Assembly (NCBI GenBank): GCA_036391815.1
Contig: DASVZD010000036.1
Span: 1 to 36,756 of the forward strand
From: Rhodocyclaceae bacterium
Lineage (GTDB): Bacteria > Pseudomonadota > Gammaproteobacteria > Burkholderiales > Rhodocyclaceae
DNA: 36,756 nucleotides
Direction: 5' to 3'
Shown here: positions 12,001-30,100 of the stretch, one piece after another
How positions within the stretch are numbered: the stretch's first letter is position 1
How the letters are laid out: the number at the start of each line of letters is the position of its first letter
The notes under the pieces: model-generated
What the model saw: the letters and a program-made list of their open reading frames with translations, nothing else
Databases searched by the model: none
Told to the model about the DNA's origin: nothing
Program-made: the position numbers and the translations under genes

Positions 12001-15000
12001 AGCTGACCGAGTGCAGTTGGTCCGGCGTCCCCGTTACGGTGGTTCCCAGGGTCAGTTCCTGGACCTGCTCGGTAAACTGGCGCAACTCCAAGCTGGTGCC
12101 GTTCGCGCAGGCCGTGTAGTCGCGGGACAGCGTGATGTAATAGGTGCCGGCAATCGGCGCGGCGAAGCTCCCGTAGTTCTGCTCGTTAGAGTAGGCGCCC
12201 CCGGCATAATTGCCGTTCGGCCCGTAGATATCCCAACTGCCTTCGCCCGGACTGCGATAGAAGAGGGTTTGCCCGGCATCGAGATTGACCGCGAATAGGC
12301 GCGGCCCCGTCGTCACGATGTCGGCCTCGGGGGATACGACCGAGGCATGCAAGCCGTCTTCGATGCGCAGGGAAGCGTCGATGTCGGACGAGTTCGAGTT
12401 CTCGAAGCTGATTGCGTAGTCGCCCGCCGCCAGGAAGCATGAATTCGCGTAGATGCCCGGCTCATAGATGGAGCCCGTTGCCATCTCGTCCTCGAGCCCT
12501 TGAATCCTCCAAGGCGTATAGATATAGCCCGTATCTCCCGACACCGTGACGAGCGTCGCCTGCGCGAGCGTGAAGCGATACGTCAAGCCGCCGGGCGGAA
12601 TGATCGCGTCGATCGGCGCGCTGCCGAGTTCCAAGGTGTCGCCGGGCGGCCGCGTGTCTACCGGTGGCTGTACCGAAACCGTGAACTGATAGTCCACGGG
12701 GCCGGTGTTGCCGACATCGCCATCGACCAGCAGCGTGTAGCGGCCGGACTGCGTCACGCGGATGTTGCTGTTGCCCTCCCATCCATACCATCCGACGAGG
12801 TTGTTCGCGCTGTCGAGCAACCGCCAGGCGATGTCCCCGCCCTGCACGCTGTCCAGCGTCACGGATATCTTGTCGCCGGCGACCGCGTCGAAGCGGCGTG
12901 CGACGGATTCGCTACCGCGCACCAGCGTGCCGGTCAGCGGTACGCCGACGTCCGTGGGGCCTGTCTCGGCCTGGTCGAGCGACATGAGGCGGAAGGCGAC
13001 GTCCTCGGCGGTCGCAGCCTGAGCCGACGTATCGGGACGGAAGATTCGAAGGCGGTACGTCCGGGCATCGAGTCCGATCAGCCGGGTGCCGTATTGAGTG
13101 TCCGCGGTGAAATAGCCGCTGGCGACAGTCCATTGCGAAAACGGGTCGTAAATCTCGTACCGGAAGTTCGGCGAGCCGGCAAGCGCATCGAACATCACCT
13201 GCGTGGGAGACGGCAGCGAGAACTCGAAGTCGAGACAGTCGCCCGTGGCCGGGAAGGCCGTCGTCACCACGTCGCCGAGGGACATCGATGCCGCGCCAAT
13301 GGGTTGGAGCACAAGCGAGTAGTCCACGCTCTGTCCCTCGGCGCCCCGGCCATAGAGCACCAGCACGTAGTGCCCGGCTTCCAGGTCGTCCGTATCGCGG
13401 GCAATCCCGGCGTCGACGCTCTGAAGGCGGTAGCCGTCGCGATAAAGTGCCCAACTGAGTTGCGCCGGATCAGCGGTTGCCAGGTCGACGGTTACGCGCT
13501 GAGAAGACGCGAGATCGAAGGCGTAGGCGATCGCATCGCGGCCGTCGGCTAATACGGCGCTTGCCCCAGCCGGGTCGAGCGTGGTTGCGGCATCCAGGTC
13601 GAGCAACTGGACGCGGAAGGCGGTGGCGGCGGGATTGCCGGACGCGAAGGTCAGCGTGTATTCGCCCCCGGCGACGTATTGCGCGTCCGAATAGAAGCCG
13701 CTATCGGACAGGTTCTGCCACCCTGCCGGCACCGACCCGACGGGCGTCAGCCGCCAGCGCATGCCGGCATCGGAACCCGCATTCGAAATGACGAAGCGGG
13801 CGTTGCCGGCCAGATTCAGGCGGTAGCTGCGGAATGTGTTCGGTGTGTCGATCGTTGCAGCCAGGATGTCTCCCAGCGCGGCCGATTCCGTGATCTCGGT
13901 GGCACGGGTTGCAGTGAGCGTGTAGTCGATAGCCCCGGCATTGTCGATACTGTTATCGACGACGACGATGTAATCCTTGTCCTGGGATAGGGTCGGGATT
14001 TCCAGCGCCGAAGCCGGCATAGCCGGTGCGCCGACCAGTCCGCCGTTGGAGTCGAACACCCAGAGGCGGCCACCGCTTGCGGCAGTTTCCGCCGAGATGA
14101 ACCATGAAGTGCCGGCTGCTGCAGAAAGCCGGTAGAGCGCGGCGGCATGCGTTTCCGGCAGTGTCCCAGGGCTGGCGACGCTTTCCGCCAGATCCGCCGC
14201 ATCTGCGGCATCGAGCAGGCGGAAGCCATATGCGCCTGGAACGGTATAACCCGCGCCCGTGACGGCCAGCCGGTAGTCGCCGGCGCCGAGATCGAAGATG
14301 GCCGGCGAACGCATGTCGCCGCTGCGCAACGTCGTACCCGCAGCGTTCAGCAGGGACCACGACACGCCCGTGCCCGACAGGGCATCGAAGACGACCCGGC
14401 GGGAGGCGTTCAGGGTGAAATTCCATGTGTCGGAAAGCCCCTGCGCATCAATGCTTCCGACGGCATCGGTCCCGAACGCGAGGTCGCGTTCGTGGTTTCC
14501 GGATACCGCCACGGTCAGTCCTAGGTCCACGGCGGATGTGGAAGAAATGTCGGCTGACAGAATCAGATGGTAATGACCGGCGGCGAGCGATCGGGTGTAG
14601 TCGTAGCGGCTGTCGAACGAGCCGACATAGTTGCCCGAACTGTCAAGCAGGACGCAGGAAACGCTCGCCGAGGCCGCCAGCGTGCCGAACTTGTAGCTGA
14701 AGTACTGACCGGCAGCGACATCGAATCCGAAGATGCGGGTGCGATCCGCCGGCTCCAGCGTGACTGTGGACGCACCCACCGGCAGCGCTTGCGCCGCGCT
14801 CGCCACGTCGATCATGCGGAACGCGAACGGCTTGGCGGAGAAGCTTTGCGACGAAACCTTGAGCGCATAATGACCGGCCGTGGACAATGCCATCCTGATG
14901 TCATTGGAGGCAAAGCTGCCGCTACTGACGGAGCCGGACGGTCCCGTTAGTTGCCACACGAGGTCGGGATCGCTGCCGAGGCTTTCGAACATCACGATCG

Positions 15001-18000
15001 TACGGGCCGAAATGTCGAAGCTGTACGTATTCTCCTGGGCCGGCTGATCCAACTGATCGTCGATCCGCTGACCGAGCGGCAGGGCCGCGGACTTCGAGCT
15101 GTAGGTGCGGACCGCGAGGTCGAAGTCGGGTTGATCGACCGTGCCGCCGCAATAAACCAGGTAATAGGTCCCGGCAAGGAGGTTCAGGCGATTGAGGTTG
15201 TACAAATTGCCCGACGCCTGGACCTGCCCGAGTGCGTCGTAGACCCTCCAGCTGCTGTACGGATTGACGCCGCCTGCATCGAACGCGAGTTGGCCGTTCT
15301 CGGCGAGATCGAACCGCAGATACGCTTGCGAACGATCGTTCGAGGCCAGCGACATATGTGCCGCCGTATTGAGCGGGACGGCGACGATGCTGGCGAGATC
15401 GGTGATGCGGAAATGGAAGGAACCGAAGTTGAGCGAGTCGGCCGCGACGGTGAACTCGTAGTTCCCCGCCGGCAGCCGGAACAAGCGCGGCGAGTTGGAA
15501 AGGCTGTTGCCGCTCGCCTCGCTGCCACGCGGCCCCGATAGGCTCCACGAGAAGCCGGCACCGTCCCAGCCGTCGACGAGGATCTGGGCGGGGGCCGTCA
15601 GCGTGAAGCTGTACTTGACGCTTTCTGCGGGACGCGTAGTGGTTCCGCTCATGTCTTGCCCCAGCGTCAGCACGGCGTTCGTCGACGGCTTGAGCAACAG
15701 GTTGAACTTGGCGGTGCGTCCCGCTCCAGCTTGCGAGTAGTAGCTGGACGCGGGGTAGACCAGCATCAGGTACTCGCCGGTGGCCTGCAGCGCGAAGTCC
15801 GTCGTGTCGTTGGACGTAGAGTTCGAGAACACCAGCCTGCCGTAAGGATCGACAATCTTGCAGTAGCACAGCTCGTTGGTGCCGTAATAGTAGTTTTGAC
15901 CGTCGAAGTAGTAGTGCTCTCCCGCATTCCCGTTGAAGCGATAGAGGCGCGCTTCACCGGCCGGGAGGCTGTCGTTGACCGCCTCGCCCGGGATCAGTGC
16001 GACCGCGGCGTCGCGGTCCAGCACACGGAAACGATAATCGACTGCGGTGTCCTTGGCATTGCGCAGCACTAAGGAGTACTTGCCGGGTGGAAGCGCTCCC
16101 AGTATGGAAGCGCTGGTTGCCGTCGACCATCCGGCGACCGTCCCCTTCGGCCCGCGCAGCATCCATTGCACGTTGTTGTTGCCGCCCGTCGTGTCGAGCG
16201 AGTCGAACACCAGGCTCGTCGTGCGGTCGAGCGTGAAGTCATATTCGGCCAGGCTCTGGCGTCCGGCCAGAGTACCGCTGAGCTGGTCGTCGAAGACCAA
16301 CGGCGCGATAGAACGATCCTGCTCGCTCAGGGTGAAGGTGACGTTCGTGCTGCCGGACGCATAGTAGTAGCCTTCGTTGATGAGCGTGTACGTTCCCGAC
16401 GCACCGATGCCGTACGTCGTGCCGTAGCTATCGCCGTTAACCCCGGTAACCGCTCGACCGAAGGGATCGATGAGCGTCCACAGCGACGAATAACCTGAGT
16501 CGCTCCAGTTCAGGACAAGGTTGCTGCCCGCCGTCGCTTCGAATCGATAGCCCAGCGTGGCGTTGCTTGGCGTGCGCGTGGCCGTAACCTGTTGGCCCAG
16601 CATGAGCGATGAAAATGCCGAGGCGTCGAGCAGCCGGAACGAATAGGCTCCGCTGTTCCAAAAATACGTGTTCGAGCTTCCCTTCACCGTCAGCGCATAG
16701 TCCCCGGCCGGAAGCGCCAGGACTGGATTTGAGTACGAGGCATCGCTGGTATAGAGCTGCCGCTGGTCGACTTCCGTGCCGCGCGGCCCCACCAGCGTCC
16801 AGATGGCGCTGCTGCCATTCTGGTTCTGCGTATCCATCACCAGCAGCGAATCGGCGGTGAGCGTAAAGCGGTAGGTCTTCGTGGCATCCCAGGCCGCCAT
16901 CGTTCCGGAAGCGAGGGTTCCAAAAGCAAGCGCATCGCCGGCGGGCAGCGGGGTGGGCGCCTGGTTGCCGCTGGCGTTGAATTGCACGCTGAATTCGACG
17001 GCTGCCGTATTGGCGAGCGCCCCCTCGATGAGCAGCGTATAGTCGCCGCCGGTCGTCAGGACGAAAGCGGCACGTGCGCTGGCGAGGTTGTTGCTGCCCG
17101 CAACGTCGCGGCCGTAGCGGTCGATCAGGCGCCAGGTGGCGGAGCCGCCATTGACGCTGTTGCTCTGGAAGGCGATCTTGTCTCCGGCCGCGGCGGTAAG
17201 CCGGTAGGCCAGGCTGCCATTGCCCGGGGAAAGCGTTCCGGTGACCGGCACGTCGGTCGTGATGCCGGCGGCCGAGCCGAAGTCCAGCAATCGGAAGGCG
17301 AACGAGCCGGTCGCGCTACCCTTGCCCCGAACTGTCAGGCGATAGTTGCCGGCGGGCAACGGCAGGATGCCGACGCCGGTGCCCTCGCTCTGATCGAAGC
17401 GGCGATCCGACACTTCCGTTCCGCGCGGACCCGAGAGGCTCCATTGCAGATCGGATCGATTGCTGAGGCTGTCGAAAGCCAGTTGCGTCGATGCCGCGAG
17501 GGTGAACGAGTAGACGATCGCTTGGCCGGCAGTGTCGATGTTGCCATCCGCTTCGGTTCCGTCGGCGGTGATCGACTGCAGAACGTCGGGGACTTTGTTC
17601 AGTGCGAACCGGTAGCTGACTGCCGCATCGGCGGCGTTGGCTTCGCTGCCGTCGATCACCAGCCAGTAGTCGCCCGTCGCTTGCACCGTGACCGGGTCGA
17701 CAGCAGTCATGAGCGCCTGGCTGGCCAGCTTCGTGCCAAAGGGATCGATGAGACGCCAGTTGACGCCGCCGCCGGCGACGGCGCGACCATCGAAATAGAC
17801 CTTGTCCCCGGCGGACAGCGAAACCTTATAGAGCTGCGACCCGCGGGCGTTGTCCAGCGTTGCGCTGACTTCGGCGCCGCTCGCGAGATCCTGCGCGCCC
17901 GCGGCTGTCAGAAGACGGAAGCCGTAGCTTCCCGTCGTCGCATAGCTGGCATCGACGGAAAGAGTGTAATCGCCGGCCGGCAGCAGGAAGCGCTCGAAGC

Positions 18001-19027: not shown

Positions 19028-19112
19028 GACAGCCTCATATATAGAAGTCGCAAGAATGCCTCGGCCTCATGGCCGGCAACCAATTGCAGATAAATCGCTT
19101 ACCGCCGGACGG

Positions 19113-20063
19113 TCAGTTCTTGGGCCGGACAGGGTCATGCGTCGAATCGACGAGGCCGGGGAAAGCCGCCCGGCACTTCACGCCGGCCGGAATATCCAGC
19201 TTCGGATTCGGCATTTCTAGGAGAACGACGAAGGTGCCGCTTGCTGCATCGATCAGCCGATCGATGCTTTTGAGCTTCGCGACATACCTCCCGTTCGCGG
19301 GAATCTCCGGCGACACATCGACCTGGGTGCCGATGGAGAGTTTGCCGAAAATCGTCTTCGGCAATATGACGTGGACACGGAGTGGATCGAGCTGAGCCAG
19401 TTTGAGGATGGCTTTCTTGTTGCCCCCGGGCTCCACCACCTCGCCGGGGTAGGCGAGCTGGTCGACCACCACGCCGTCGAAGGGGCTGCGCAAGGTACGC
19501 AAGCCGAGCAGCGCGCTTTGCTGCTGGAATTCGATGCGGGCAATCTGGCGGTTCTCCTGGGCAACCTGGAGTTCGGATTCAGCCAGGCGGTGCTCGACCT
19601 CGGCATCGTCGCTGTCCTGAACTGCCATGAGCTTTTCGCTCGCCAATTGGCGGCGGCGCTCGAACTTCCGCTTGGAAAACTCGATCTTGTTCTCGGCCGT
19701 GTGGATCGGCCCCACCTGTTCCGACTTATACCTAGCAAGCTCGGCGGCAGCGTGTTCCGCCCGGGATTCGAGCTGCGCGACAGTCTGTCCCTTGGAAACG
19801 CGATCGCCCCGCTTCACGGAAACCCGGTCGAGGAGCCCGGTCACGGGACTGCCCAGTTCGACCATCTGAGTGGGCTCGATGAGGCAGTCGAAGGTAGCTC
19901 CGGCATGCGACGGGAACGGCATCGCCGCCAATCCGAAGGCAGCGGCGGCCGCCCGCCAATTTCGAAGGTGGGCGCGGCAATGAAGCACTGGGCGACGAAG
20001 AACAAGGGGAAGCGCGGCCGTGGAAGCGCCGGTGGGCAAACTGGCAAGGCTCTGCAACGACAT
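19113..20063 (-). CDS. HlyD-family / efflux-type periplasmic adaptor (membrane fusion protein); start uncertain
   Basis: Track ORF 19113..20084. Lipoyl-like hairpin VELGSPVTGLLDRVSVKRGDRVSKGQTVAQLES; an alpha-helical hairpin of about 80 aa (AELARYKSEQ...QIARIEFQQ); LRSPFDGVVVDQ beta-barrel motif; N-terminal hydrophobic anchor or signal WRAAAAAFGLAAMPFPSHA. The track start at 20084 is TTG. The first ATG is at 20063 (its GGGGAG is directly adjacent, which is poor spacing); GTG at 19987 is also possible. Confidence 0.75.
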   Translation of the reverse strand: MSLQSLASLPTGASTAALPLVLRRPVLHCRAHLRNWRAAAAAFGLAAMPFPSHAGATFDCLIEPTQMVELGSPVTGLLDRVSVKRGDRVSKGQTVAQLESRAEHAAAELARYKSEQVGPIHTAENKIEFSKRKFERRRQLASEKLMAVQDSDDAEVEHRLAESELQVAQENRQIARIEFQQQSALLGLRTLRSPFDGVVVDQLAYPGEVVEPGGNKKAILKLAQLDPLRVHVILPKTIFGKLSIGTQVDVSPEIPANGRYVAKLKSIDRLIDAASGTFVVLLEMPNPKLDIPAGVKCRAAFPGLVDSTHDPVRPKN

Positions 20064-20127
20064 CTCCCCTAGTCGAACCGTCAACCCGCCCCTTTGCGGG
20101 CAGTCTCAACAGCAAATGCGGGTCACG

Positions 20128-20311: not shown

Positions 20312-20620
20312 CTAGAAATTGAACAGTCGGTCGACGGACAGTACCTTGAACAGTCTCAATACCTTGTCGTTGCAGTTCCGGACCACCATTTCCTTGCCGC
20401 GCTCCTCGCAGAACTTGTGCCACGCGACGAGGGTCCCGATACCGCAGCTGTCCACATAGTCCACCGCCGAGAGATTGAGCACGATCCGGTCCGTCGCGGG
20501 ATCGTTCAGCAGTTGCACGAAAGGCACGCGAAATTTCGCGGAACTGGTGAAGTCGAAGCTCGCGGGAAGGTCGATGTGGGCCGCTTCCGCAGAAGCCAAA
20601 GTGGGACTCGCAGCTAGCAT
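20312..20620 (-). CDS. STAS-domain protein (SpoIIAA/RsbV-like anti-sigma-factor antagonist), 102 aa
   Basis: C-terminal part of track ORF 20312..20731. The internal ATG at 20620 is preceded by GGAGG (20631-20627, 6-nt spacer). The sequence ...RIVLNLSAVDYVDSCGIGTLVAWHKFCEERGKEMVVRNCNDKVLRLFKVLSVDRLF matches the STAS pattern. Ser58 in VDSCG (codon 20449-20447) aligns with the phosphorylatable Ser of RsbV/SpoIIAA. Confidence 0.8.
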   Translation of the reverse strand: MLAASPTLASAEAAHIDLPASFDFTSSAKFRVPFVQLLNDPATDRIVLNLSAVDYVDSCGIGTLVAWHKFCEERGKEMVVRNCNDKVLRLFKVLSVDRLFNF

Positions 20621-20860
20621 GATTGGCCTCCTTGTTTGGCGCGCCGCAATACCCATGAGAGTGAGCGCGGCGAGGGTCGAAACGACAAGTCCACGATAGT
20701 GCGTTTGCCCGCTTTTGCCACTATGCCGCACACGTACGGCTTTCGGCGTAGTCCTTGCACCGATCGCGAAATCATCCGATTCCCGTCGCCGAGCACTGGC
20801 GATCGGTTCGCGAGTGGGCTACGTTGATGGTTCCCGAAGCAACGCCGGGTCGCAACGACG

Positions 20861-23524
20861 ATGCGCGATATCCACCTGAAGAGTGCCGCCCAGCCGAACC
20901 TGGCGCGAATGCGCCTGGCGATGAAGAACGCCGGCACCACACGCCGTCTGCGCGGCTCTCGCCACCGCAAGGAAGCTGCCGGCGCCGCGCAGTTCGACCC
21001 GGTGCGCCACGAATACACCGCGGCCGTCGAGATGATCCACACCGTGCTGGCATCGGAAGGCGCCATTCCCGACTCGCGCGTGCGCTACTGGGTGCAACCG
21101 TTCAGCAAGGTGAGCGGCGACTTCTTCTGCCACGCAGTGCACGAGAAGCGCGGCTGGTTCGGTCTGTTCGCCGATGCCGCCGGCCACGGGCTGCCGGCCG
21201 CCATCTATGCGCTGCACATCCCCGTGCTGTTTCGCGAAGCGGTGCTGCTCGGCATGCCGCTCGCCGGCATCTACGACCACCTCAACCGCTTCCTGCTGCG
21301 CCAGCAAGTGTTCAGCGAATACGTGTGCGGCGCACTCGTGCACATCCATGAACGCGAGGTGGCCGTCATCAACGCCGGCGTGCCTGAAGTCCTGCTGACC
21401 TCCCACGAGGGCCGCATCCTCGAGACCTTCGGACCCAGGCGCTTTCCCATGGGCATCCGCCCGACCGAAGGAGACATCGAACCGCAGCGCTACCGGCTGC
21501 CCCGCGACCAGCACGGTTCGCTGTTCCTCTGCTCGGATGGGCTCGCTGAACTCGGCATCCGCTGCGGCGCCGAGGGACTGGGCATCAAGCGCATACGCAA
21601 GGCGCTCAGCGAAGGCACCGAGGAGGCGTTCGAACGGCTGAAGGCCGAGGCCACGCGCCATGCGGACTGCGTCCATGACGACGTCAGCCTGGCGCTGGTG
21701 CCGGTGCCGCTCGCCCGCTGCGACCTCGCGGCCGACGAGGAGCTGTCTCCGGCGCCGCGGCTGCAGGTGGCCGAAGTGATGCCGCGCATCGTGGAGAGCC
21801 TCGAATACGGCGTCTTCCTGACGGACGCCGATCTGCGCATCCTCTACGCCAATCCATCGCTGGCGGCGGCGACCGGCCTCGCCGCCGACGGCATCGTCGG
21901 CAAGTCGCCCAGCATGCTGCACGCGGGGCGGCGGCGCGAGGAGCTGTTCGACTCGATGCAGCGGTCATTGCGCGACGAAGGGCACTGGAGTGCCGAGGTG
22001 TGGAACCGCGACGCCAACGGAGCGCTGCGCCCCTATCGCATGGTGCTCGACGCGCTGCCCGGGGATGACGGCGGCATCGGCCACTTTCTCGGCACCTACA
22101 CCGCGATCGAGTCCGCCAAGGGCACGGGCGAGGCGGCCTACGGCTCGCTGACGCTGCCCGACCCGCTCACCGGCCTGCCCAGCCGCGACCTGCTCAACGA
22201 CCGCGGCCAGGTCGCCGTCGCCCGCACGCACCGCGGCTCGCGCAGCCTGGCGGTGCTGTTCATCGATCTCGACCGCTTCTCGTCCATCAACGAAAGCCTC
22301 GGCCTCGACGTCGGCGACGAAGTGCTGCTGGTCGCCGCGCGAAGGCTGGCGAGCACCCTGCGCGAGGACGACACCATCTCGCGCTACGGCAACGACGAGT
22401 TCGTCTGCCTGCTGTCCGACATCGCCGAGCAGCACGATGCCGCCATCGTCGCTCACAAGGTGCTGGCGGCCCTCGCCGAGCCGATCAGCGTCGTCGGCCA
22501 TGCCATCAAGATCGGGGCCTCCATCGGCGTCAGCATCCTGTCGCGGGATTGCAGTTCCTTCGAGGACCTCATCGTGCAGGCGGCGCGCGCCATGCACCGT
22601 TCGCGCGAAGCGGGCGGCAACCTGGTCACCTTCTTCGACGCCGAGATGGACAAGTCGATGGGCCGCCACTTCGACCTCGAAACGCGCCTCAACTCGGCCG
22701 TGGACGCCGGGCAGCTCGAGGTCTTCCTGCAGCCGAAGGTCGATCTCTCCGAGGGCGGCATCATCGGCGCGGAAGCGCTGGTCCGCTGGCGCGATCCGCA
22801 AGAGGGCCTGGTGTCGCCCGGACTGTTCATCCCGATCGCGGAGAAGAGCGACTTGATCTCGCGCATCGGCCAATGGGTGCTCAATCGCGTGTGCGCGCTG
22901 CTGGCCGAGCGCCATGCCGACCTGCCGCAGCACTTCCATATCGCGGTCAACGTGTCGCCCAAGCAGTTCGAGCGCGACGACGTGGCAGGGACGGTGGCGC
23001 AGGCGCTGCGCGATACCGGCGTGCCGCCGCAGCGGCTGCAGATCGAGGTCACCGAATCGATGTTCATCCGCGACATCCAGCGCGTCGTGCAGACGCTCAA
23101 CGACATCGTCGGACTGGGCGTCACCGTGGCGCTCGACGACTTCGGCACCGGCTACTCCAATCTCGCCTCCCTGAGCCGCCTGCCGCTCGGCACCTTCAAG
23201 CTCGACCAGAGCCTGGTGCGCGGCGTCGACCGCGATTCCTCGAATGCCTCGATCGCGCGCTCGGTCTGGCATCTCGCCGACGGGCTCAACAAGGAGCTGG
23301 TGGCGGAAGGCATCGAGACCTGCGCCGAATGCAGCCACCTGAAGGGAATCGGCTATCGGCTCGGCCAGGGATACCGTTTCGGCAAGCCGATGCCCGAAGA
23401 GGAATTCTTCTCCCATCTGGGCGCATGGTCGTCGACTTGCAGATGTCCGGGCCAGGAACCGGAATGCGCGGGCGGCTGCTGCAGCGGGCAGTGCATCCGC
23501 GCATCGGACGCTCCGCTCCAATAG
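20861..23524 (+). CDS. Multidomain signalling protein: PP2C/SpoIIE-type phosphatase, PAS, GGDEF (degenerate GNDEF, I-site kept), EAL (catalytic motifs intact)
   Basis: PP2C motifs: SGDFFCHAV, LFADAAGHGLPAA, LFLCSDGLAEL, HDDVSLALV. PAS: IVESLEYGVFLTDADLRILYANPS.... GGDEF domain: LTGLPSRDLL...REDDTISRYGNDEF (REDD 22361-22372, GNDEF 22388-22402). EAL domain: GAEALVRW, NVSPKQF, EVTES, DDFGTGYSNL, KLDQS, EGIET, GQGYRFGKP. The start could be ATG 20861, 20909 or 20921. Confidence 0.9.
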   Translation: MRDIHLKSAAQPNLARMRLAMKNAGTTRRLRGSRHRKEAAGAAQFDPVRHEYTAAVEMIHTVLASEGAIPDSRVRYWVQPFSKVSGDFFCHAVHEKRGWFGLFADAAGHGLPAAIYALHIPVLFREAVLLGMPLAGIYDHLNRFLLRQQVFSEYVCGALVHIHEREVAVINAGVPEVLLTSHEGRILETFGPRRFPMGIRPTEGDIEPQRYRLPRDQHGSLFLCSDGLAELGIRCGAEGLGIKRIRKALSEGTEEAFERLKAEATRHADCVHDDVSLALVPVPLARCDLAADEELSPAPRLQVAEVMPRIVESLEYGVFLTDADLRILYANPSLAAATGLAADGIVGKSPSMLHAGRRREELFDSMQRSLRDEGHWSAEVWNRDANGALRPYRMVLDALPGDDGGIGHFLGTYTAIESAKGTGEAAYGSLTLPDPLTGLPSRDLLNDRGQVAVARTHRGSRSLAVLFIDLDRFSSINESLGLDVGDEVLLVAARRLASTLREDDTISRYGNDEFVCLLSDIAEQHDAAIVAHKVLAALAEPISVVGHAIKIGASIGVSILSRDCSSFEDLIVQAARAMHRSREAGGNLVTFFDAEMDKSMGRHFDLETRLNSAVDAGQLEVFLQPKVDLSEGGIIGAEALVRWRDPQEGLVSPGLFIPIAEKSDLISRIGQWVLNRVCALLAERHADLPQHFHIAVNVSPKQFERDDVAGTVAQALRDTGVPPQRLQIEVTESMFIRDIQRVVQTLNDIVGLGVTVALDDFGTGYSNLASLSRLPLGTFKLDQSLVRGVDRDSSNASIARSVWHLADGLNKELVAEGIETCAECSHLKGIGYRLGQGYRFGKPMPEEEFFSHLGAWSSTCRCPGQEPECAGGCCSGQCIRASDAPLQ

Positions 23525-23615: not shown

Positions 23616-24761
23616 GTGGTCATCGTCGGCGGCGGCTTGGCGGGCCTGGCTCTCGCCGTTGCCATGCGCACGGCGCGCCTGCGCGTCGCGCTGGTGGAGA
23701 GCCAGCCGGTGCCCGCGAGGCACGACGGCTGGGACGCGCGCGTCTATGCCATCAGCCCCGCCAACGTCCGCTTCCTGGAGCAGATCGGCGTCTGGCGCCG
23801 CCTCGATGCCGCGCGCATGGCGCCCATCGCCGCCATGGAGATCCACGGCGACCGCGGCGGGCGTCTCGACTTCTCCGCCGGCGCCGTCGGCGTCCCGGCA
23901 CTCGCCTGGATCGTCGAGTCGTCGCTGATGCAGCGCGAGCTCCTCGCATCGGCGAAGCGACAGTCGAATCTCGAGTTGCTCTGCCCGGCGCGGCCCGCCC
24001 GCCTGTCGTTCGCGGCCGACCGCGCGACGCTGCACCTGCAAGACGGGCGCACGCTGGCCGCGAAGCTGGTCGTGGCGGCCGACGGTGCCGATTCCTGGAC
24101 CCGCCGGGCCGCCGGCATCGAGGTCGCGTTCCACCCCTACCGCCAGCATGGCGTCGTCGCCAACTTCGCCTGCGAGCGGCCGCCCGCGGGCATGGCCTGC
24201 CAGTGGTTCCGCGACGGCGGGACCCTGGCCTACCTGCCGCTGCCGGGGAAGCTGATGTCGATGGTGTGGGCGACCTCGCCCGAGCATGCGGCGCAACTGC
24301 TGGCCCTCGACGCCGCCGGGCTCTGCGCGCGGGTGGCCGAGGCCGGCCGGCACCGCTTCGGTTCGCTGGCGCCGCTCACGCCGCCGGCGGCCTTCCCGCT
24401 GCGCCTGATGCGCGCACCCGGCGTCGTGGCGCCGCACCTCGCCCTCATCGGCGACGCCGCCCACACCATCCATCCGCTCTCGGGCCACGGCATCAACCTC
24501 GGCTTCCAGGATGCGCGCGTGCTGGCCGAGGTGCTGGCGGCCTGTCCCGGCCATGTCCATTGCGGCGACGTACGGTGGCTGCGGCGCTACGAGCGCCTCC
24601 GCAGGGAAGAGGTGGTCGCGCTACAATCGGTCACCGACGGCTTGCAGAAGTTGTTCGCCCACCGCGGCCAGCCGGTTTCCCTGCTGCGCAATTTCGGCCT
24701 GACCCTCACCAACCATCTTCCCTTCGTGCGCAATGCGCTGGCGCGCTACGCGATGGGCTGA
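23616..24761 (+). CDS. UbiH/UbiF/VisC/COQ6-family FAD-dependent monooxygenase (ubiquinone-biosynthesis hydroxylase type)
   Basis: VIVGGGLAGLALA dinucleotide-binding motif; VVAADGADS; GDAAHTIHPLSGHGINLGFQDA. The track start is GTG 23616, inside the first beta strand (upstream in frame: ALDFDV). The true start may be a non-canonical codon just upstream: GGAGG at 23594-23598, then CTG at 23604. Confidence 0.85.
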   Translation: MVIVGGGLAGLALAVAMRTARLRVALVESQPVPARHDGWDARVYAISPANVRFLEQIGVWRRLDAARMAPIAAMEIHGDRGGRLDFSAGAVGVPALAWIVESSLMQRELLASAKRQSNLELLCPARPARLSFAADRATLHLQDGRTLAAKLVVAADGADSWTRRAAGIEVAFHPYRQHGVVANFACERPPAGMACQWFRDGGTLAYLPLPGKLMSMVWATSPEHAAQLLALDAAGLCARVAEAGRHRFGSLAPLTPPAAFPLRLMRAPGVVAPHLALIGDAAHTIHPLSGHGINLGFQDARVLAEVLAACPGHVHCGDVRWLRRYERLRREEVVALQSVTDGLQKLFAHRGQPVSLLRNFGLTLTNHLPFVRNALARYAMG

Positions 24762-24777
24762 CACTACCGGAGACTCC

Positions 24778-25494
24778 ATGATCAAACGTATTCTGCTGGC
24801 CGTCCTGGCCGCCGCCTGGATGCTGGCCGCCCACGCGCAGACCGGCGACACGGCCGACATCAAGAAGGCGGTCGAGGCCTCGCTCGGCAAGGGCACCAAG
24901 GTCGACAGCGTGCGCGAAGCCGGCGTGCTCGGCCTCTATGAAGTCGTCGTCGGCGGCGAGATCCTGTACACCGACAAGAAGGCCAGCCACTTCTTCATCG
25001 GCGAGATCATGGACGCCAAGACGCACCGCAACCTCACCGAGGACCGCAAGAACAAGCTGGCGCAGATCAAGTTCAGCGACCTGCCGTTCGACCTCGCCAT
25101 CAAGCAGGTGCGCGGCAACGGCAAGCGGGTCTTCGCCACCTTCGAGGATCCGCACTGCGGCTACTGCAAGAAGCTCGCGCACGAACTGAAGGGCATGAAC
25201 GACGTCACCATCTACACCTTCCTGTTCCCGATCCTGTCGCCCGACTCGACCGAGAAGTCGAAGGGCATCTGGTGCGCGCCGGACCGCGCCAAGGCCTGGA
25301 ACGACTGGATGCAGAACGGCGTCGAGCCGCCGGTCGGCAAGTGCGACGCGCCGATCGAGAAGGTGCTGGCCCTGGGCCGCAAGCTGAACATCCGCGGCAC
25401 CCCGACCATCTTCTTCCCCGACGGCAGCCGCGTGCCCGGCTTCATTCCGGCCGCCGCCATCGAGCAGTCGCTGGCCAAGGCCGGCGGCGGCTAA
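24778..25494 (+). CDS. dsbC: Thiol:disulfide interchange protein DsbC (periplasmic disulfide isomerase)
   Basis: ATG 24778 follows GGAG. Signal peptide MIKRILLAVLAAAWMLAAHA; dimerisation-domain-like N-terminus; CGYC active site in FEDPHCGYCKKL; GTPT cis-Pro loop (IRGTPTIFF). The 15-codon extension in the track overlaps the end of the preceding gene and is rejected. Confidence 0.85.
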   Translation: MIKRILLAVLAAAWMLAAHAQTGDTADIKKAVEASLGKGTKVDSVREAGVLGLYEVVVGGEILYTDKKASHFFIGEIMDAKTHRNLTEDRKNKLAQIKFSDLPFDLAIKQVRGNGKRVFATFEDPHCGYCKKLAHELKGMNDVTIYTFLFPILSPDSTEKSKGIWCAPDRAKAWNDWMQNGVEPPVGKCDAPIEKVLALGRKLNIRGTPTIFFPDGSRVPGFIPAAAIEQSLAKAGGG

Positions 25495-26918
25495 CGCCGC
25501 AGCAGCAGGGGCCGCAGCCGCTGATCGAAGCGCGCCTCCCACGGCGCGTCCGCTTCGTCGGCATGCGCGAGCCGGGCCTCCGGCTCGCCGGCCAGCAGCG
25601 CGCTCAGGCTGAAGTACTTGGCCTCGCGCGCGGATCCGAGCCGGCGCTGCAGCTTCCCTTCGAGGCCGCTCCAGCGGAACAGCTGGAGCCCGCGGCCGCT
25701 GTCGCCGAACTCGACGGCAAGCACGTCGTCGATGCGCAGCAGCAGCGCGGCCTCGTCGTCGCCCGCCGCATCGGTCAGCAGCAGGCAGCCGGCCGACCGG
25801 CGGACGAAGCGGCCCTGGCGGTTGTCGCGCCGCTCCATGGCCTTGCTGTCCAGCCCGATCCAGAGCGAGGTGATGAACGGCGCGTAGCGCTGCCAGTAGG
25901 CGGCGCGCCGGTCGTCGGCGTCGGCGGAATGCAGGCGGAAGAACTGCGCGATCAGCCAGTCCTTGAGCCAGCCGTTGACCATTTCGCGCGCCAGCTCGTC
26001 CGGCTTGCCCTGCGCGTCGAGCACCTGCGCATCCCACGCCGGCCTGCGCTGCCAGGGATTGCCGATGGCGGCGATGGCGGCGTCGAGCAGCGCTTCGTGG
26101 CGCCCCACGGTCTCGCAGCGCGCGTGGCGCGACAGGTAGAGCGCCACGCAGCGCTGCGCCAGGCGCGCGGATACCTCGACCCCGGCCTTCCCTGCCGCGA
26201 TGTCGAGCAGCTGGGGCAGCACCGCCAGCCACTCGCTGTCGGGTAGCGCCGCCGCCGCCTTCGCCTGCGCCAGCACGGCTTCCTGCTTCACCCACGAATC
26301 GGCGGGGATCGCCAGGCCGTCGATGACCGCCTGCAGCTCGCCGGCATCGCCGCGCAGCAGCGCCGGACCGTAGCGCTCGCACGGCGATTCGCCGAGCAGA
26401 TTGAGATGCCTGCCGAGCAGCGTGAACCAGGTCGGCCTCCCGCCGCCGCCCGAAAGCAGCTGGCCATAGCGGCGCGCCAGCCAGCCGCGCAGCGCCTCCA
26501 TGCCGATCGCCGCCGCCGGCGCCTCCTGGTAGCGCGGAAACGACCAGTAGCCGCGCAGCAGTGCCTGGAAGCACTTGAGCTGCCGGCGCGCGCCCGGGAC
26601 CGTCTCGGCGAGATCGAACAGCCGGGCACGCAAGGCAGGCTCGGCCAGCAGGCAGCGGCCCTCGGCATCGAGCGTGGCCGCGCCGAGGCAGACGTAGCGC
26701 AGTTGCGCGAGGTCGGCGACCTTCGAGCGCCGCCGGAAGGCCGCCACTGCCCGCGAAATCCTGTCCGCGGCGACCGGCCGTCCCGCCGCGTTGTCGTGGC
26801 GCCGCCGCACGTCCTCGAGCGCTGCCGTCATCGCCCGCGGCTCGCCCCAGCCGGCGGCGCGGCCGAGTTCGAGCGCGCCCGCCAGCCGGGCCCGCAGCGC
26901 ATCGATCGCCGGCCTCAC
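25491..26918 (-). CDS. zorC: ZorC-like protein (candidate EH-signature domain), 475 aa
   Basis: GTG at 26918-26916 overlaps the zorB stop (GTGA, 26918-26915). The longer track ORF (to 27242) would run inside zorB with an Arg/Pro-rich prefix. The C-terminal region reads RRAAYWQRYAPF...LLRIDDVLAVEFGDSGRGLQLFRW...ARLAHADEADAPWEARF (Glu codon 25712-25710, His codon 25565-25563). This fits my memory of the EH-signature domain, and the gene occupies the third position after zorA and zorB. The family call is not verified by any search. Confidence 0.6.
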   Translation of the reverse strand: MRPAIDALRARLAGALELGRAAGWGEPRAMTAALEDVRRRHDNAAGRPVAADRISRAVAAFRRRSKVADLAQLRYVCLGAATLDAEGRCLLAEPALRARLFDLAETVPGARRQLKCFQALLRGYWSFPRYQEAPAAAIGMEALRGWLARRYGQLLSGGGGRPTWFTLLGRHLNLLGESPCERYGPALLRGDAGELQAVIDGLAIPADSWVKQEAVLAQAKAAAALPDSEWLAVLPQLLDIAAGKAGVEVSARLAQRCVALYLSRHARCETVGRHEALLDAAIAAIGNPWQRRPAWDAQVLDAQGKPDELAREMVNGWLKDWLIAQFFRLHSADADDRRAAYWQRYAPFITSLWIGLDSKAMERRDNRQGRFVRRSAGCLLLTDAAGDDEAALLLRIDDVLAVEFGDSGRGLQLFRWSGLEGKLQRRLGSAREAKYFSLSALLAGEPEARLAHADEADAPWEARFDQRLRPLLLRR

Positions 26919-27634
26919 GCCTTGTCGAGCGGGCACTTGGGATCCTCGTCCCAGGGAATTTCCGGCGGGCTTTCCTGCTTCTCGTCCAGTTCGCGGAATT
27001 CCATCTTCAACTCGACGCGGCGGCTCTCCTCGGCGCTGGCCTTCAGCGCGTTGAACGACGAGCCGCCGACGAGGAACAGCTTGCGTATGGTGCGGCGATC
27101 GTCCCGGCTGGGCGCATCCGCCGCCTGGGGGTCGAGCAGCACGCACAGCACGCGCTGCGAGCGCTGCAGGCTCAGGTTGAGGTTGTAGAGATACGAGCCT
27201 TCCTGGCTCGCGAAGCCTTCGACGACGACGCGCTTGAGCCACTTGCCGCAGTTGCCGCCGCGCGCGACTTCCACCATCTGCGGCACGAAGCGCCGCAAGA
27301 AGCTGCGCCGTTCGGGGCTGAGGTCATAGCCGCGCCGCTCGAACTCGGCCAGCGCGCCGAATTCGATCGAGTTCTCCCTGACCCGCACGCCGCTGAACTC
27401 CGGCCTCGCGGCCAACGCGGCCATGTCCGCCATGCAGGCCTTGATCGCTTCCTGCCGCGCCTGCTTCTGCGCCTCGACGCGCTGCAGTCCCTGCGTCACC
27501 GCCATCAGCGCCACCGCCATGGCGACCAGGAACAGCACCATCAGCGCCGTCATCAGGTCGGAGAACGAAATCCAGAAGGGCTTCTCGGCCGGGTCGCGCG
27601 CCGGCCGCCGCGGCAGCGTCTTCAGTCCGATCAC
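26915..27634 (-). CDS. zorB: ZorB-like MotB/OmpA-family stator protein, 239 aa
   Basis: GTG 27634 overlaps the zorA stop (GTGA). A single TM with the conserved Asp: KPFWISFSDLMTALMVLFLVAMAV (D26, codon 27559-27557). OmpA-like peptidoglycan-binding C-terminal part: VVVEGFASQEGSYLYNLNLSLQRSQRV. Confidence 0.8.
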   Translation of the reverse strand: MIGLKTLPRRPARDPAEKPFWISFSDLMTALMVLFLVAMAVALMAVTQGLQRVEAQKQARQEAIKACMADMAALAARPEFSGVRVRENSIEFGALAEFERRGYDLSPERRSFLRRFVPQMVEVARGGNCGKWLKRVVVEGFASQEGSYLYNLNLSLQRSQRVLCVLLDPQAADAPSRDDRRTIRKLFLVGGSSFNALKASAEESRRVELKMEFRELDEKQESPPEIPWDEDPKCPLDKA

Positions 27635-29529
27635 GAGGACGCCTTTGGCCGCGCCGGGATGTCCTCGATCAGGTCGCCGAGGTCCTGGATGGCGCCGGAG
27701 AGCAAACCGACCGCCTGCGACAGCTCGGCCTGGAACTGCCGGTTGCTCTCGCGCAACGTGCGCTCGATGCCGTCGGCGAACGACTGGTGCGCCTGCACCA
27801 GCACGTCATTGACGCCGCGCAGGTAATCCTCGGCCTTGCGCTGGGCCGCCGAGAGCTGTGCCGCCGCGCCGTGCAGCCGGTCGACCAGCTCGGCGCTGAC
27901 CGAGGCGTCGCGCTTCGCGGTCTCCACCGTGGCCCGCAGATCGGACACCAGGGCCGCGAACACCTCATGGGCCTGCACGTGCGTCTCCAGCGCACGCTGC
28001 GAGGCGACCGTGGCGGCGGACAGCGCGTTGGCGGCGAAGCTGATGGTCTCCGTCGCGCCCTCGGCGGCATGCAGGGTCTGGGTGACGCCCTGCCCCGCCT
28101 GCGCGAAGTCCCGGGCCGCCGTGGCCAGCGTGTCGGCACCGGCGTTCATGCCCGCGATGGCGTCCGCCGTCGCGGCGCCCAGCCGGTCGACCGCCGCCTG
28201 CACCGATTGGCTCGCCTCGATGGAGCGCGCGATCAGGCGCTCCATCTGGCCGGCCATGCTGCCGACGGCGTCGCCCGCCTGGCTGGCGATGCGCTCCGCC
28301 TGCTGCTGCTGGACCTCGGTGGTCGTGCGCGTCTGGTCCTGCAGCTGCTGGACGGCGACCGCCACCCGGTCGCCCAGCCTCGCCAGCGCGGCCTCCAGCA
28401 TCTCGCCCGATTGCGACTGCGCCTGCAGGGTCGCCGCGCGCATCTGCGCGACGAATTCCGCCATCTGGCGGACGGCGTCCTGCTGGCGTTCGCCGGTCGT
28501 GGCCACGGCGGCGTTGGTCCGCTGCAGCAGTTCGCTGCTGTCGCGCATCTGCGCCGCGAATAGGCCCTGCATCTGCGCGCTGAAGCCGGCCAGCACCTCG
28601 GCCACCATCCGGCCGACCACCTGCTCCTGGCGCGCGGTGACCGTGTCGACGGCGCGCGCGATGTTCTCGATCGGCTGCCCGAGGCGCTCGCCGACGATGC
28701 GCCCGATGTCGGCGGCCAGCTGCTCGCCGTGGCGCGCCGAGGCATTCACCTGCCGCGTGCTCACCTCGGTGAAGATCTCGCGCAGCTGGTCGGCCAGCGC
28801 GTCCTTGATGCGCTCGGCCTGCGCCGCCGAGGTCTCGGCCGCCACCACCAGGCGCTCGAGGTACTCGTAGTCGGCGCCGACGTCGAACATGCCGTCGATC
28901 AGCTCGCGCAGCTGCTCGACCTGCCGGTAGCGCAGGGTCAGCATCGACTTCTCGACCCAGGTGAACAGCATCGCCAGGGTGATCGCCACGGCGGAGACGA
29001 AGAAGGCGTGGCCGACCGAGTTGATCAGGTTGCGCAGCTGCGTCTGCGCCTGGTTCGGGTCGAGCGACACGTCGAAGTTCACCAGCCCGATGATGAGCCC
29101 GGTGAAGGTGCCGATGATGCCCAGGCCGGTGAGGATGCCGGGGAGATGCTTGTAGAACTCGGTCTTGAGCGGCGAGTCGACCAGCGCCTCCTCGCTGAAG
29201 AACGAGGCCGCCAGCGTCGTGGCGCGCCAGCGCTGGCGCCCCGCCTCGGCCTGCGGGTGCAGGGTCTGCCGGTATTCCTGCCAGAGGTGGGCCAGGCGCG
29301 GCGGCTTCATCGCGGTCGCCGCGATGTCGTCGATGGCGGCCGCGCTGCCGTCGGCGCGCGTCTCCTTGATCACCCGCAGCGCCTCGACGGCGTCGCCGAG
29401 TTCCACGCCCAGCCGCAGCGAGGGGAGCACGAAGCGGAACAGGAAACCGATGGCGATGCCCGCCAGCAGAACGCCGACGGCCCAGGCATACCAGTAGTGG
29501 ATCAGCAGTTCCAGCGGCGATTCCGTCAT
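27631..29529 (-). CDS. zorA: ZorA-like MotA/ExbB-family proton-channel protein with a long C-terminal helical tail, 632 aa
   Basis: Three predicted TM helices (YWYAWAVGVLLAGIAIGFLF; LPGILTGLGIIGTFTGLIIGLV; VGHAFFVSAVAITLAMLFTWV, the MotA_ExbB signature region). They are followed by about 400 aa of Ala/Gln/Glu/Arg-rich, apparently coiled-coil sequence. The gene is followed by coupled MotB-like and EH-like genes. Confidence 0.8.
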   Translation of the reverse strand: MTESPLELLIHYWYAWAVGVLLAGIAIGFLFRFVLPSLRLGVELGDAVEALRVIKETRADGSAAAIDDIAATAMKPPRLAHLWQEYRQTLHPQAEAGRQRWRATTLAASFFSEEALVDSPLKTEFYKHLPGILTGLGIIGTFTGLIIGLVNFDVSLDPNQAQTQLRNLINSVGHAFFVSAVAITLAMLFTWVEKSMLTLRYRQVEQLRELIDGMFDVGADYEYLERLVVAAETSAAQAERIKDALADQLREIFTEVSTRQVNASARHGEQLAADIGRIVGERLGQPIENIARAVDTVTARQEQVVGRMVAEVLAGFSAQMQGLFAAQMRDSSELLQRTNAAVATTGERQQDAVRQMAEFVAQMRAATLQAQSQSGEMLEAALARLGDRVAVAVQQLQDQTRTTTEVQQQQAERIASQAGDAVGSMAGQMERLIARSIEASQSVQAAVDRLGAATADAIAGMNAGADTLATAARDFAQAGQGVTQTLHAAEGATETISFAANALSAATVASQRALETHVQAHEVFAALVSDLRATVETAKRDASVSAELVDRLHGAAAQLSAAQRKAEDYLRGVNDVLVQAHQSFADGIERTLRESNRQFQAELSQAVGLLSGAIQDLGDLIEDIPARPKASS

Positions 29530-29620
29530 CGGCTCGGTTCTTGTCGGCGTACCGGGCGCAGTATACCGAGGGCCGACCGGCGTATCCTCCGGCCTCGACC
29601 CTGCTGAGAGCGAGGAAAGC

Positions 29621-30100
29621 GTGAACCGATACCTGCTGCTGCTGGAAACCCTTTACGCCGTGGCCAAGAAGACGCGCGTCGACGGGCTCAAGTCGCTCGT
29701 CAAGCATCTCGACGATCCGGCCCGCTCGCTGTTCTTCTCGGCGGCCATGGCCCAGGAACCGGCCGCCACCGCCTTCATGTGCGATTCGCTGCAGATGGTC
29801 GCCGCCGGCATGAGCCTGGACGAAGTGACGTTCTACATGGACGGCTACCGCCTGCGCCTGATCAGCGCCGACAAGGCGGACAGCCACCTGGTCAACCTGG
29901 TGTTCCGCACGGTGTGGGCGATCGCCCATTCGGGCTGGGACCCGATCGCCTGCACGGAATTCGGCCGCGCCGCCGTTCCCGCCGCCCAGTCGATGGGCCG
30001 CAAGGAATGGATCGCCTACTGCAACAGCCTGGAGATCGAGCGCACCCAGACCAACATCAACTGGGACGCGCTGCTGAAGGAAATCAAGCCGGGCGCCTAG
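29621..30100 (+). CDS. Soluble 159-aa protein resembling the cytoplasmic portions of MotA, with all transmembrane helices missing
   Basis: GTG 29621 is preceded by GAGGA (29612-29616). There is no hydrophobic stretch long enough for a TM helix. An ungapped match to the E. coli MotA loop (recalled sequence, residues ~82-148): LYAVAKKTRVDGLKSLVKHLDDPARSLFF...FMCDSLQMVAAGMSLDEVTFYMD against LYRLMAKSRQMGMFSLERDIENPRESEIF...FIVDYLRLIISGHMNTFEIEALMD. A second match, SGWDPIACTEFGRA against NGYAPPIAVEFGRK, aligns with the MotA C-terminal cytoplasmic segment. Confidence 0.7.
   Translation: MNRYLLLLETLYAVAKKTRVDGLKSLVKHLDDPARSLFFSAAMAQEPAATAFMCDSLQMVAAGMSLDEVTFYMDGYRLRLISADKADSHLVNLVFRTVWAIAHSGWDPIACTEFGRAAVPAAQSMGRKEWIAYCNSLEIERTQTNINWDALLKEIKPGA

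Follow-up and report, generated by a model that had tools for sequence, protein, structure and literature searches.

Can a Zorya system persist in nature without its nuclease? The question is raised by three adjacent genes in a 36,756-nucleotide (nt) stretch of DNA from a Rhodocyclaceae bacterium (metagenome contig DASVZD010000036.1 of assembly GCA_036391815.1). This whole stretch is called the window hereafter, and coordinates refer to it unless another locus is named. The genes encode ZorA, ZorB and ZorC of a type I Zorya system, and no zorD gene follows them. In E. coli, deletion of any Zorya gene abolishes defence (PMC11946911), and ZorD is essential in both type I systems studied, those of E. 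coli and Shewanella (PMC11946911, PMC11890865). The E. coli ZorA5B2 complex binds peptidoglycan and works as a rotary motor driven by protons; perturbation of the envelope activates it, and its signal, passed along the ZorA tail, brings in the soluble partner (PMC11946911).

An earlier note on this DNA, made from the sequence alone, had proposed that the module could be an undescribed Zorya subtype lacking ZorD, ZorE and ZorF/G, and had considered three options: a decayed type I system, an effector encoded in trans, or a three-gene variant with a different output. Here we describe a natural clade of ZorABC loci that lack both ZorD and the C-terminal domain of ZorC, and that constitute a candidate undescribed Zorya subtype. 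The shortening of ZorC itself is new over the earlier reading.

Identity of the ZorABC core

The three genes lie on the minus strand in the order zorA (27631-29529, 632 aa), zorB (26915-27634, 239 aa) and zorC (25491-26918, 475 aa). They are chained by GTGA stop/start overlaps, which we read in the sequence at 27631-27634 (zorA/zorB) and 26915-26918 (zorB/zorC), just as the earlier note had described. The zorC start is slightly uncertain, as a public gene call takes a GTG codon 18 nt upstream (26936) and thereby yields a protein of 481 aa.

ZorA matched the PADLOC profile ZorA1 (PDLC00598; E 2.7e-186) and E. coli ZorA in the Protein Data Bank (PDB; 8qyd_A, 1.8e-67), and it scored above the cut-off of the NCBIfam family antiphage_ZorA_3 (332 vs 250 bits). 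Its translation shows three hydrophobic, transmembrane segments and, after them, a helical tail of about 400 aa that would lie in the cytoplasm. This is the channel-plus-tail architecture proposed earlier, although the Pfam MotA_ExbB profile gave no match to the protein. ZorB matched PADLOC ZorB1 (2.1e-90) and E. coli ZorB (8qyd_F, 4.9e-50), and its transmembrane Asp26 aligned with Asp26 of the E. coli protein. This residue lies within the motif FWISFSDLMT, and residue and motif alike are kept in all loci of the new clade that were checked. The MotB-like character of ZorB and its OmpA-like peptidoglycan-binding domain were thus borne out, with Pfam scores slightly under the respective cut-offs (OmpA 26.5 bits, MotB_plug 23.3 bits); on the NCBIfam ZorB1 equivalog the protein scored 219 bits, under the 400-bit cut-off. 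For both motor proteins, the ZorA2, ZorB2, ZorA3 and ZorB3 profiles scored far under those of type I.

The third gene had been singled out beforehand by the earlier note as a refuting test for its reading, and its product is clearly an EH-signature protein. It scored 83.8 bits on Pfam EH_Signature (PF15611; cut-off 27.5) and 1.4e-121 on PADLOC ZorC1. E. coli ZorC (8r68_A) was its sole significant match in a PDB sequence search (1.7e-11), and 8r68 was also the sole significant fold match (E 1.7e-10) of its AlphaFold2 model (mean predicted local distance difference test score 86.8).

ZorC is reduced to its EH core

The match to the ZorC1 profile spanned only positions 3-470 of 551. In an alignment of 42 homologues, the window ZorC and its closest relatives (466-494 aa) stop right after the motif WExRFDxxLRP, whereas more distant relatives (about 545-585 aa) extend further by a linker and a small domain ending in GGALWV...WGFRYKxGKGWWKE. 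When the canonical ZorC C-terminal domain was used as a tblastn query, there were no matches in the window or in any locus with a short ZorC. In E. coli ZorC, a linker connects the structured core, which reaches to Pro478, to a C-terminal globular domain; when this domain is deleted, DNA binding and defence are both abolished (PMC11946911). The window ZorC ends where the structured core of the E. coli protein ends, and it is therefore made up solely of the N-terminal helices and the EH core.

Within this core, the signature residues E403 and H452 (49 residues apart) are kept, together with R338, W342 and W460. Equivalents of E. coli ZorC R335, W339, E400, H443 and W458, which are five of the six residues of the EH electrostatic network, are kept in 19-21 of 21 short sequences. 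The sixth, Asp332, has an equivalent in 44 of 44 canonical ZorCs vs 8 of 21 short ones. The mean net charge of the core was +1.1 in short proteins (range -11 to +11) vs +4.3 in canonical ones, to which the canonical tail adds a further +4.6; a compensating positive charge on the short core was looked for and not seen. The relaxed Asp332 position and the lower core charge would fit a changed role of ZorC rather than canonical DNA binding. One subclade of short ZorCs (P0043, P0071, P0072 and P0083) has lost both the E and the H of the EH signature. In the locus that encodes P0043 (L074; zorC at 8001-9404), zorA and zorB are nevertheless intact and the ZorB Asp is conserved.

ZorD and the ZorC C-terminal domain are absent together

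Seventy-five loci were collected for comparison. A ZorC gene is present in 73 of them, 10 reached through protein-based look-ups of contigs and 63 taken from species-representative genomes; the remaining two (L072 and L073) were collected for a neighbouring 159-aa gene and contain no zor genes. The species-representative genomes were scanned with a ZorC alignment, a scan with a single ZorC protein having found nothing. About 17-37 kb around each cassette were inspected, and ZorD was searched for by tblastn (E <= 1e-4).

The window and all 17 related short-clade loci lack both the ZorC C-terminal domain and ZorD, and the tblastn search returned no ZorD match in any short-clade locus. These loci (L001-L006, L009-L014, L018, L046, L074 and L075, L013 being the same as L006, plus the P0036 and P0040 contigs, for which gene tables only were used) span at least nine genomic contexts and eight GTDB species assemblies. 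Carriers of the cassette include GCA_036391735.1, GCA_964632965.1, JAHFRE01, DAIDAU01, JAQTNK01 and the 486-kb contig Ga0453684_0000063. No second ZorC-containing locus was found in the eight species assemblies that carry a short cassette, a negative result limited by the incompleteness of metagenome-assembled genomes (MAGs) and by the sensitivity of the search pattern. Among the 53 loci with other ZorCs, by contrast, zorD directly follows zorC in 52, and the ZorC C-terminal domain is nearly always present too. In these 52 canonical loci, which come from Burkholderiales, Nitrosospira, Acidobacteriota, Magnetococcales and others, zorD starts a few bases after zorC and encodes a protein of about 1250 aa with SNF2 and Mrr domains. 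Relative to them, the short-clade loci lack all of the sequence that encodes the ZorC linker, the ZorC C-terminal domain and ZorD. The joint loss provides evidence, from comparison of loci, for a functional partnership of the ZorC C-terminal domain with ZorD.

The sole exception among the 53 loci is L066, where a nucleotide cyclase-FHA gene comes after a distant ZorC of 529 aa. This locus (positions 5159-10418 of WGLP01000005, a Gammaproteobacteria MAG) encodes zorA-zorB-zorC without ZorD, and the next gene product is a 304-aa adenylate/guanylate cyclase with an FHA domain that matches Pycsar PycC profiles. It may represent another Zorya variant with a different partner.

The short ZorCs share a single origin. 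In a neighbor-joining tree of the ZorC core with 86 sequences, 24 short ZorCs were monophyletic and nested in type I (bootstrap 98/100), and the same clade was recovered when ZorB or the motor region of ZorA was used for the tree, likewise distance-based. The sister clade, with L016 as an example, has a full-length ZorC, and other short ZorCs (P0141, P0144, P0091 and P0095) were seen besides. The ZorD-less state first noticed in the window is thus common to a monophyletic clade, in line with the subtype that the earlier note had proposed. A library of 1.84 billion representative proteins contains about 800 clusters of the ZorC family at 50% identity, of which about 6 belong to the short clade, and the clade is therefore rare and lineage-restricted, mostly to Rhodocyclaceae and Sterolibacterium. 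A scan of viral contigs found no relatives, and the plasmid collection yielded distant EH-domain proteins only.

ZorA has also changed in this clade, with a median length of 617 aa vs 667 aa in canonical loci. The short-clade proteins lack a 33-residue block of the mid-tail of canonical type I ZorA (located after residue 346 of the window ZorA), and the tip of the tail is conserved. The 33 residues correspond to three 11-residue repeats, and their deletion would preserve the register of a right-handed coiled coil.

The short cassette is maintained

Pairwise Nei-Gojobori ratios of nonsynonymous to synonymous substitution (dN/dS) between the window and L001 were 0.17 for zorA, 0.16 for zorB and 0.25 for zorC, with 0.25 for the neighbouring dsbC; against L005 they were 0.38, 0.21, 0.42 and 0.57, respectively, with dS probably underestimated in these GC-rich genes. 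The zorABC cassette is thus under purifying selection, with dN/dS values similar to those of dsbC. Intact zor open reading frames (ORFs) were found in at least 10 diverged lineages, whose ZorC identity goes down to about 42%, and L012 alone has a shortened zorB.

As the earlier note had observed, the position after zorC is occupied in the window by dsbC (24733-25494, plus strand), which is convergent to zorC, so that the stop codons of both genes overlap. The same zorC/dsbC junction architecture was found in six independent assemblies, and so it is not a misassembly. Decay and assembly artefact were both ruled out on the basis of this junction and the dN/dS values.

A promoter-like element lies upstream of zorA, in the 91-bp divergent intergenic region (29560-29588, minus strand: AGGATAC, 16 nt, TATACT). 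When five diverged loci were aligned, none of its bases varied. A consensus sigma-70 scan made no call on it, and its putative role as a conserved promoter-like element of zorA is drawn from conservation alone.

Genomic contexts and candidate partners

The cassette has been inherited vertically at the dsbC site in Rhodocyclales, and several other sites carry it as well. Convergent dsbC follows zorC in the window and in L001, L002, L005, L009 and L010. L009 (JBLNBJ010000082.1) is labelled as an Ignavibacteria MAG, has a G+C content of 67% and shows the same synteny of 159-aa gene, zorABC and dsbC as the Rhodocyclaceae loci; it is probably mis-binned.

Elsewhere the following gene differs from context to context. 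In L003 it is ahpC, followed by ahpF and msrAB and then by a defence island with NERD-UvrD, HEC-05, AbiE and HsdM. In L074 a PDC-S60-like NACHT-HEAT (STAND) protein and a SoFic-like gene follow, so that the cassette stands beside defence genes in two independent contexts. The P0036 contig has an enoyl-CoA hydratase gene and then msrA and msrB, the P0040 contig has small convergent ORFs, and L011 has a gene that looks like a LysR-type regulator, as judged from its sequence. In L006 the next gene is translationally coupled to zorC, and its product is RNase H-like, with the catalytic residues D-E-D-D. This gene (L006 6578-7051, from an uncultured Rhodocyclaceae MAG) encodes a 157-aa RVT_3 protein, its start overlaps the zorC stop (ATGA), and outside this sublineage no locus was found to have it; it is a candidate replacement nuclease.

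Genes for thiol-redox or oxidative-repair functions flank the cassette in three separate contexts, namely DsbC at the dsbC site, DsbB together with AhpC, AhpF and MsrAB in L003 (5705-6292 and 11571-15064), and MsrA and MsrB on the P0036 contig. These neighbours could reflect chance, or they could hint at a link to envelope or oxidative stress.

The gene divergent from zorA in the window (29621-30100, plus strand) encodes a soluble, all-helical protein of 159 aa that weakly resembles the cytoplasmic domain of MotA (TIGR03818, E 5e-7; top Foldseek matches MotA structures, E 0.3-0.4) and is unlike ZorA. It is under purifying selection (dN/dS 0.13-0.30), and its family comprises 18 clusters, with all three members of named taxon in Rhodocyclaceae. 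The earlier note had suggested that this gene may be involved in the system, an idea that the comparison does not sustain. The gene accompanies the cassette in the dsbC context only, it is absent from five other contexts (L003, L006, L012, L018 and L074), and homologues of about 60% identity stand among unrelated genes, with no zor gene, in L072 and L073.

Other genes of the window

Pfam and PADLOC scans of the plausible ORFs of the window, together with tblastn using a ZorD query, found no ZorD, helicase, nuclease, HNH or integrase gene, in agreement with what had been noted from the translations, and PADLOC recognised no defence protein besides the three zor genes. Upstream of dsbC on the plus strand lie genes for a SpoIIE-PAS-GGDEF-EAL protein (20861-23524) and a UbiH-like flavoprotein (23616-24761), and a STAS-domain gene is found on the minus strand (20312-20731). 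On the other side, beyond the 159-aa gene, CsbD, a sorbosone-dehydrogenase-like gene, an HTH gene, an HD-domain gene and cytochrome c are encoded on both strands between 30146 and 35523.

The left part of the window is taken up by a minus-strand open frame of at least 6355 codons (2-19066) that runs off the left end. Pieces of 1000 aa sampled from it contained CARDB, PPC and Y_Y_Y-type domains, and an HlyD-family gene (19113-20084, minus strand) lies just upstream of it. The giant frame may thus encode a protein that is secreted or displayed on the surface. The large plus-strand ORFs of the same region (1-19 kb) were considered as a possible hidden effector and rejected; they gave no Pfam matches and are antisense to the giant frame.

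Function of the short cassette

In our view, the short cassette is most likely a conserved, working, lineage-specific derivative of type I Zorya, with three co-transcribed genes and a role in defence that depends on a non-canonical or outsourced effector. From the comparative data, we would put the probability of this reading at roughly 0.6. Of the three options of the earlier note, the three-gene variant with a different output is thus the best fit. The ZorD nuclease and the ZorC C-terminal domain are essential in E. coli and both have been lost here, and so the output probably differs from the canonical degradation of incoming DNA by ZorC and ZorD, and the role is probably still defence.

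By analogy with the E. coli system, ZorA5B2 would be a peptidoglycan-anchored, proton-driven rotary motor that uses ZorB Asp26. It would respond to envelope perturbation and signal to the ZorC core through the conserved tip of the ZorA tail. As ZorD and the DNA-binding domain of ZorC are absent, the ZorC core would therefore act alone or with a partner for which the operon has no fixed gene. The core would most likely be an adaptor or effector; the part of its partner could fall to ZorC itself, to a host factor, or to one of the variable neighbours, for example the RNase H-like protein of L006 or the NACHT-HEAT protein of L074. A bolder proposal, which we put forward only tentatively and consider rather doubtful, is that ZorAB and the ZorC EH core suffice by themselves for sensing and output, without need of a dedicated nuclease or of the DNA-binding domain of ZorC. 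Such a unit could provide non-nucleolytic protection (for example by interfering with genome entry or by acting on the membrane), work with interchangeable partners, or sense envelope or redox stress.

Several points weigh against a defence role with a non-canonical effector. By the standard of E. coli, where ZorD and the ZorC C-terminal domain are essential, a system reduced to ZorABC would be expected to be inactive. No fourth gene conserved across contexts was found, and the idea of variable partners rests on single examples. The window shows no defence neighbours. The cassette is stably syntenic with housekeeping genes, which is unusual for a defence system and would also suit a non-defence role. 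Finally, the regions inspected extend over 17-37 kb around each cassette, and the window is a metagenome contig of 36.8 kb, which leaves room for an effector encoded elsewhere.

This last point bears on the possibility that the cassette performs ordinary type I function and recruits in trans a dedicated effector whose gene lies at another place in the genome, be it a ZorD-like SNF2/Mrr nuclease or a different protein. The requirement for ZorD in the systems studied so far (PMC11946911, PMC11890865) is in its favour. However, 52 of the 53 loci outside the short clade have zorD directly after zorC, and an unlinked arrangement was not seen. Relocation of zorD would also leave unexplained why the ZorC C-terminal domain was lost along with ZorD throughout the clade. 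Together with the lack of ZorD matches in the short-clade loci and of a second ZorC locus in the eight species assemblies (the latter weakened by its limits given above), these observations make a trans-acting effector unlikely. A further alternative is a functionless type I remnant, decaying after a 3' deletion that took away zorD and the tail of ZorC. A single deletion of this kind would remove just the part that is missing, and zorB is truncated in L012. On the other hand, at least 10 lineages have kept their ORFs intact while ZorC identity in the clade fell to about 42%; dN/dS is well under 1 and like that of the neighbours, catalytic and structural residues as well as the promoter-like element are conserved, and the cassette has moved as a unit between at least nine contexts. 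The decayed type I system that the earlier note had listed is effectively refuted by the selection, the intact ORFs and the several contexts, and we hold it to be extremely improbable.

It is also conceivable that the cassette was co-opted for a job other than defence, in which ZorAB senses envelope or oxidative stress and signals through ZorC without a nucleic-acid target. Besides the stable inheritance beside housekeeping genes, the higher conservation of ZorB compared with the neighbouring DsbC would agree with this, as would the thiol-redox neighbours in three separate contexts, the relaxation of one EH-network residue, the lower charge of the core, and the P0043 subclade, which has lost E and H yet retains intact ZorAB. 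However, the redox neighbours are common genes, they are convergent to or apart from the operon, and they are missing in other contexts. Two of the contexts (L003 and L074) are defence islands, and the cassette has no linked regulator or output domain. A role outside defence is not known for any Zorya relative. Considering both sides, we judge co-option to be quite improbable, and a defence role with a non-canonical or outsourced effector remains our preferred reading.

Current models, which are based on two type I systems and one type II system, regard ZorAB as a sensor that solely recruits and activates a nuclease, and the clade described here is natural, old and without that nuclease. The output of Zorya might thus be non-nucleolytic, or not fixed in the operon, and if this is true the view of Zorya as ZorAB always combined with a nuclease would be overturned. 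A minimal system of ZorAB and the ZorC core offers the chance to ask what the EH core does alone. There is also a consequence for annotation, as these loci would escape a classification rule that demands the full type I set of four genes and would be called ordinary type I by one that tolerates a missing gene.

Comparison with known systems

A full-text search of the literature found no description of a natural subtype lacking both ZorD and the ZorC C-terminal domain; the 'zorABC' of Vibrio cholerae is a cloned fragment that ends after zorC. The most distant relatives to be considered are the 5:2 motors MotAB and ExbBD/TolQR. They have a distant common fold with ZorAB and, by inference, the proton-driven 5:2 rotary principle is shared. 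However, the window has no flagellar or Ton/Tol partner genes, and its ZorA fails to match the Pfam MotA_ExbB profile and bears the Zorya-specific tail.

Among Zorya systems, type II (ZorAB with the HNH protein ZorE) shares the ZorAB motor and the principle of a soluble partner, but Pfam and PADLOC scans found no HNH domain in the window. Type III (ZorAB with ZorF and ZorG) likewise shares ZorAB, and neither DUF3348 (ZorF) nor DUF2894 (ZorG) was found by the same scans. Unlike the window, neither type has an EH-signature protein as its third gene.

The closest system is type I, as represented by E. coli NCTC9026 (structures 8QYD for ZorAB and 8R68 for ZorC). It has the same orthologous ZorA, ZorB and ZorC core, with the same gene order and overlaps, and the window shares with it Asp26 and the peptidoglycan-binding domain of ZorB, the long ZorA tail with its conserved tip, and the E and H residues of ZorC. 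It differs from it in the absence of ZorD, which directly follows zorC in type I, and of the ZorC linker and C-terminal globular domain, as well as in the shorter ZorA and in the Asp332 equivalent, which is not conserved in the short clade. In gene content, the window matches the engineered ZorABC constructs and the ZorC C-terminal deletion made in E. coli and Shewanella (PMC11890865, PMC11946911). The E. coli knock-outs are dead for defence, whereas the variant described here is natural, old and, as judged from its substitution pattern, under selection.

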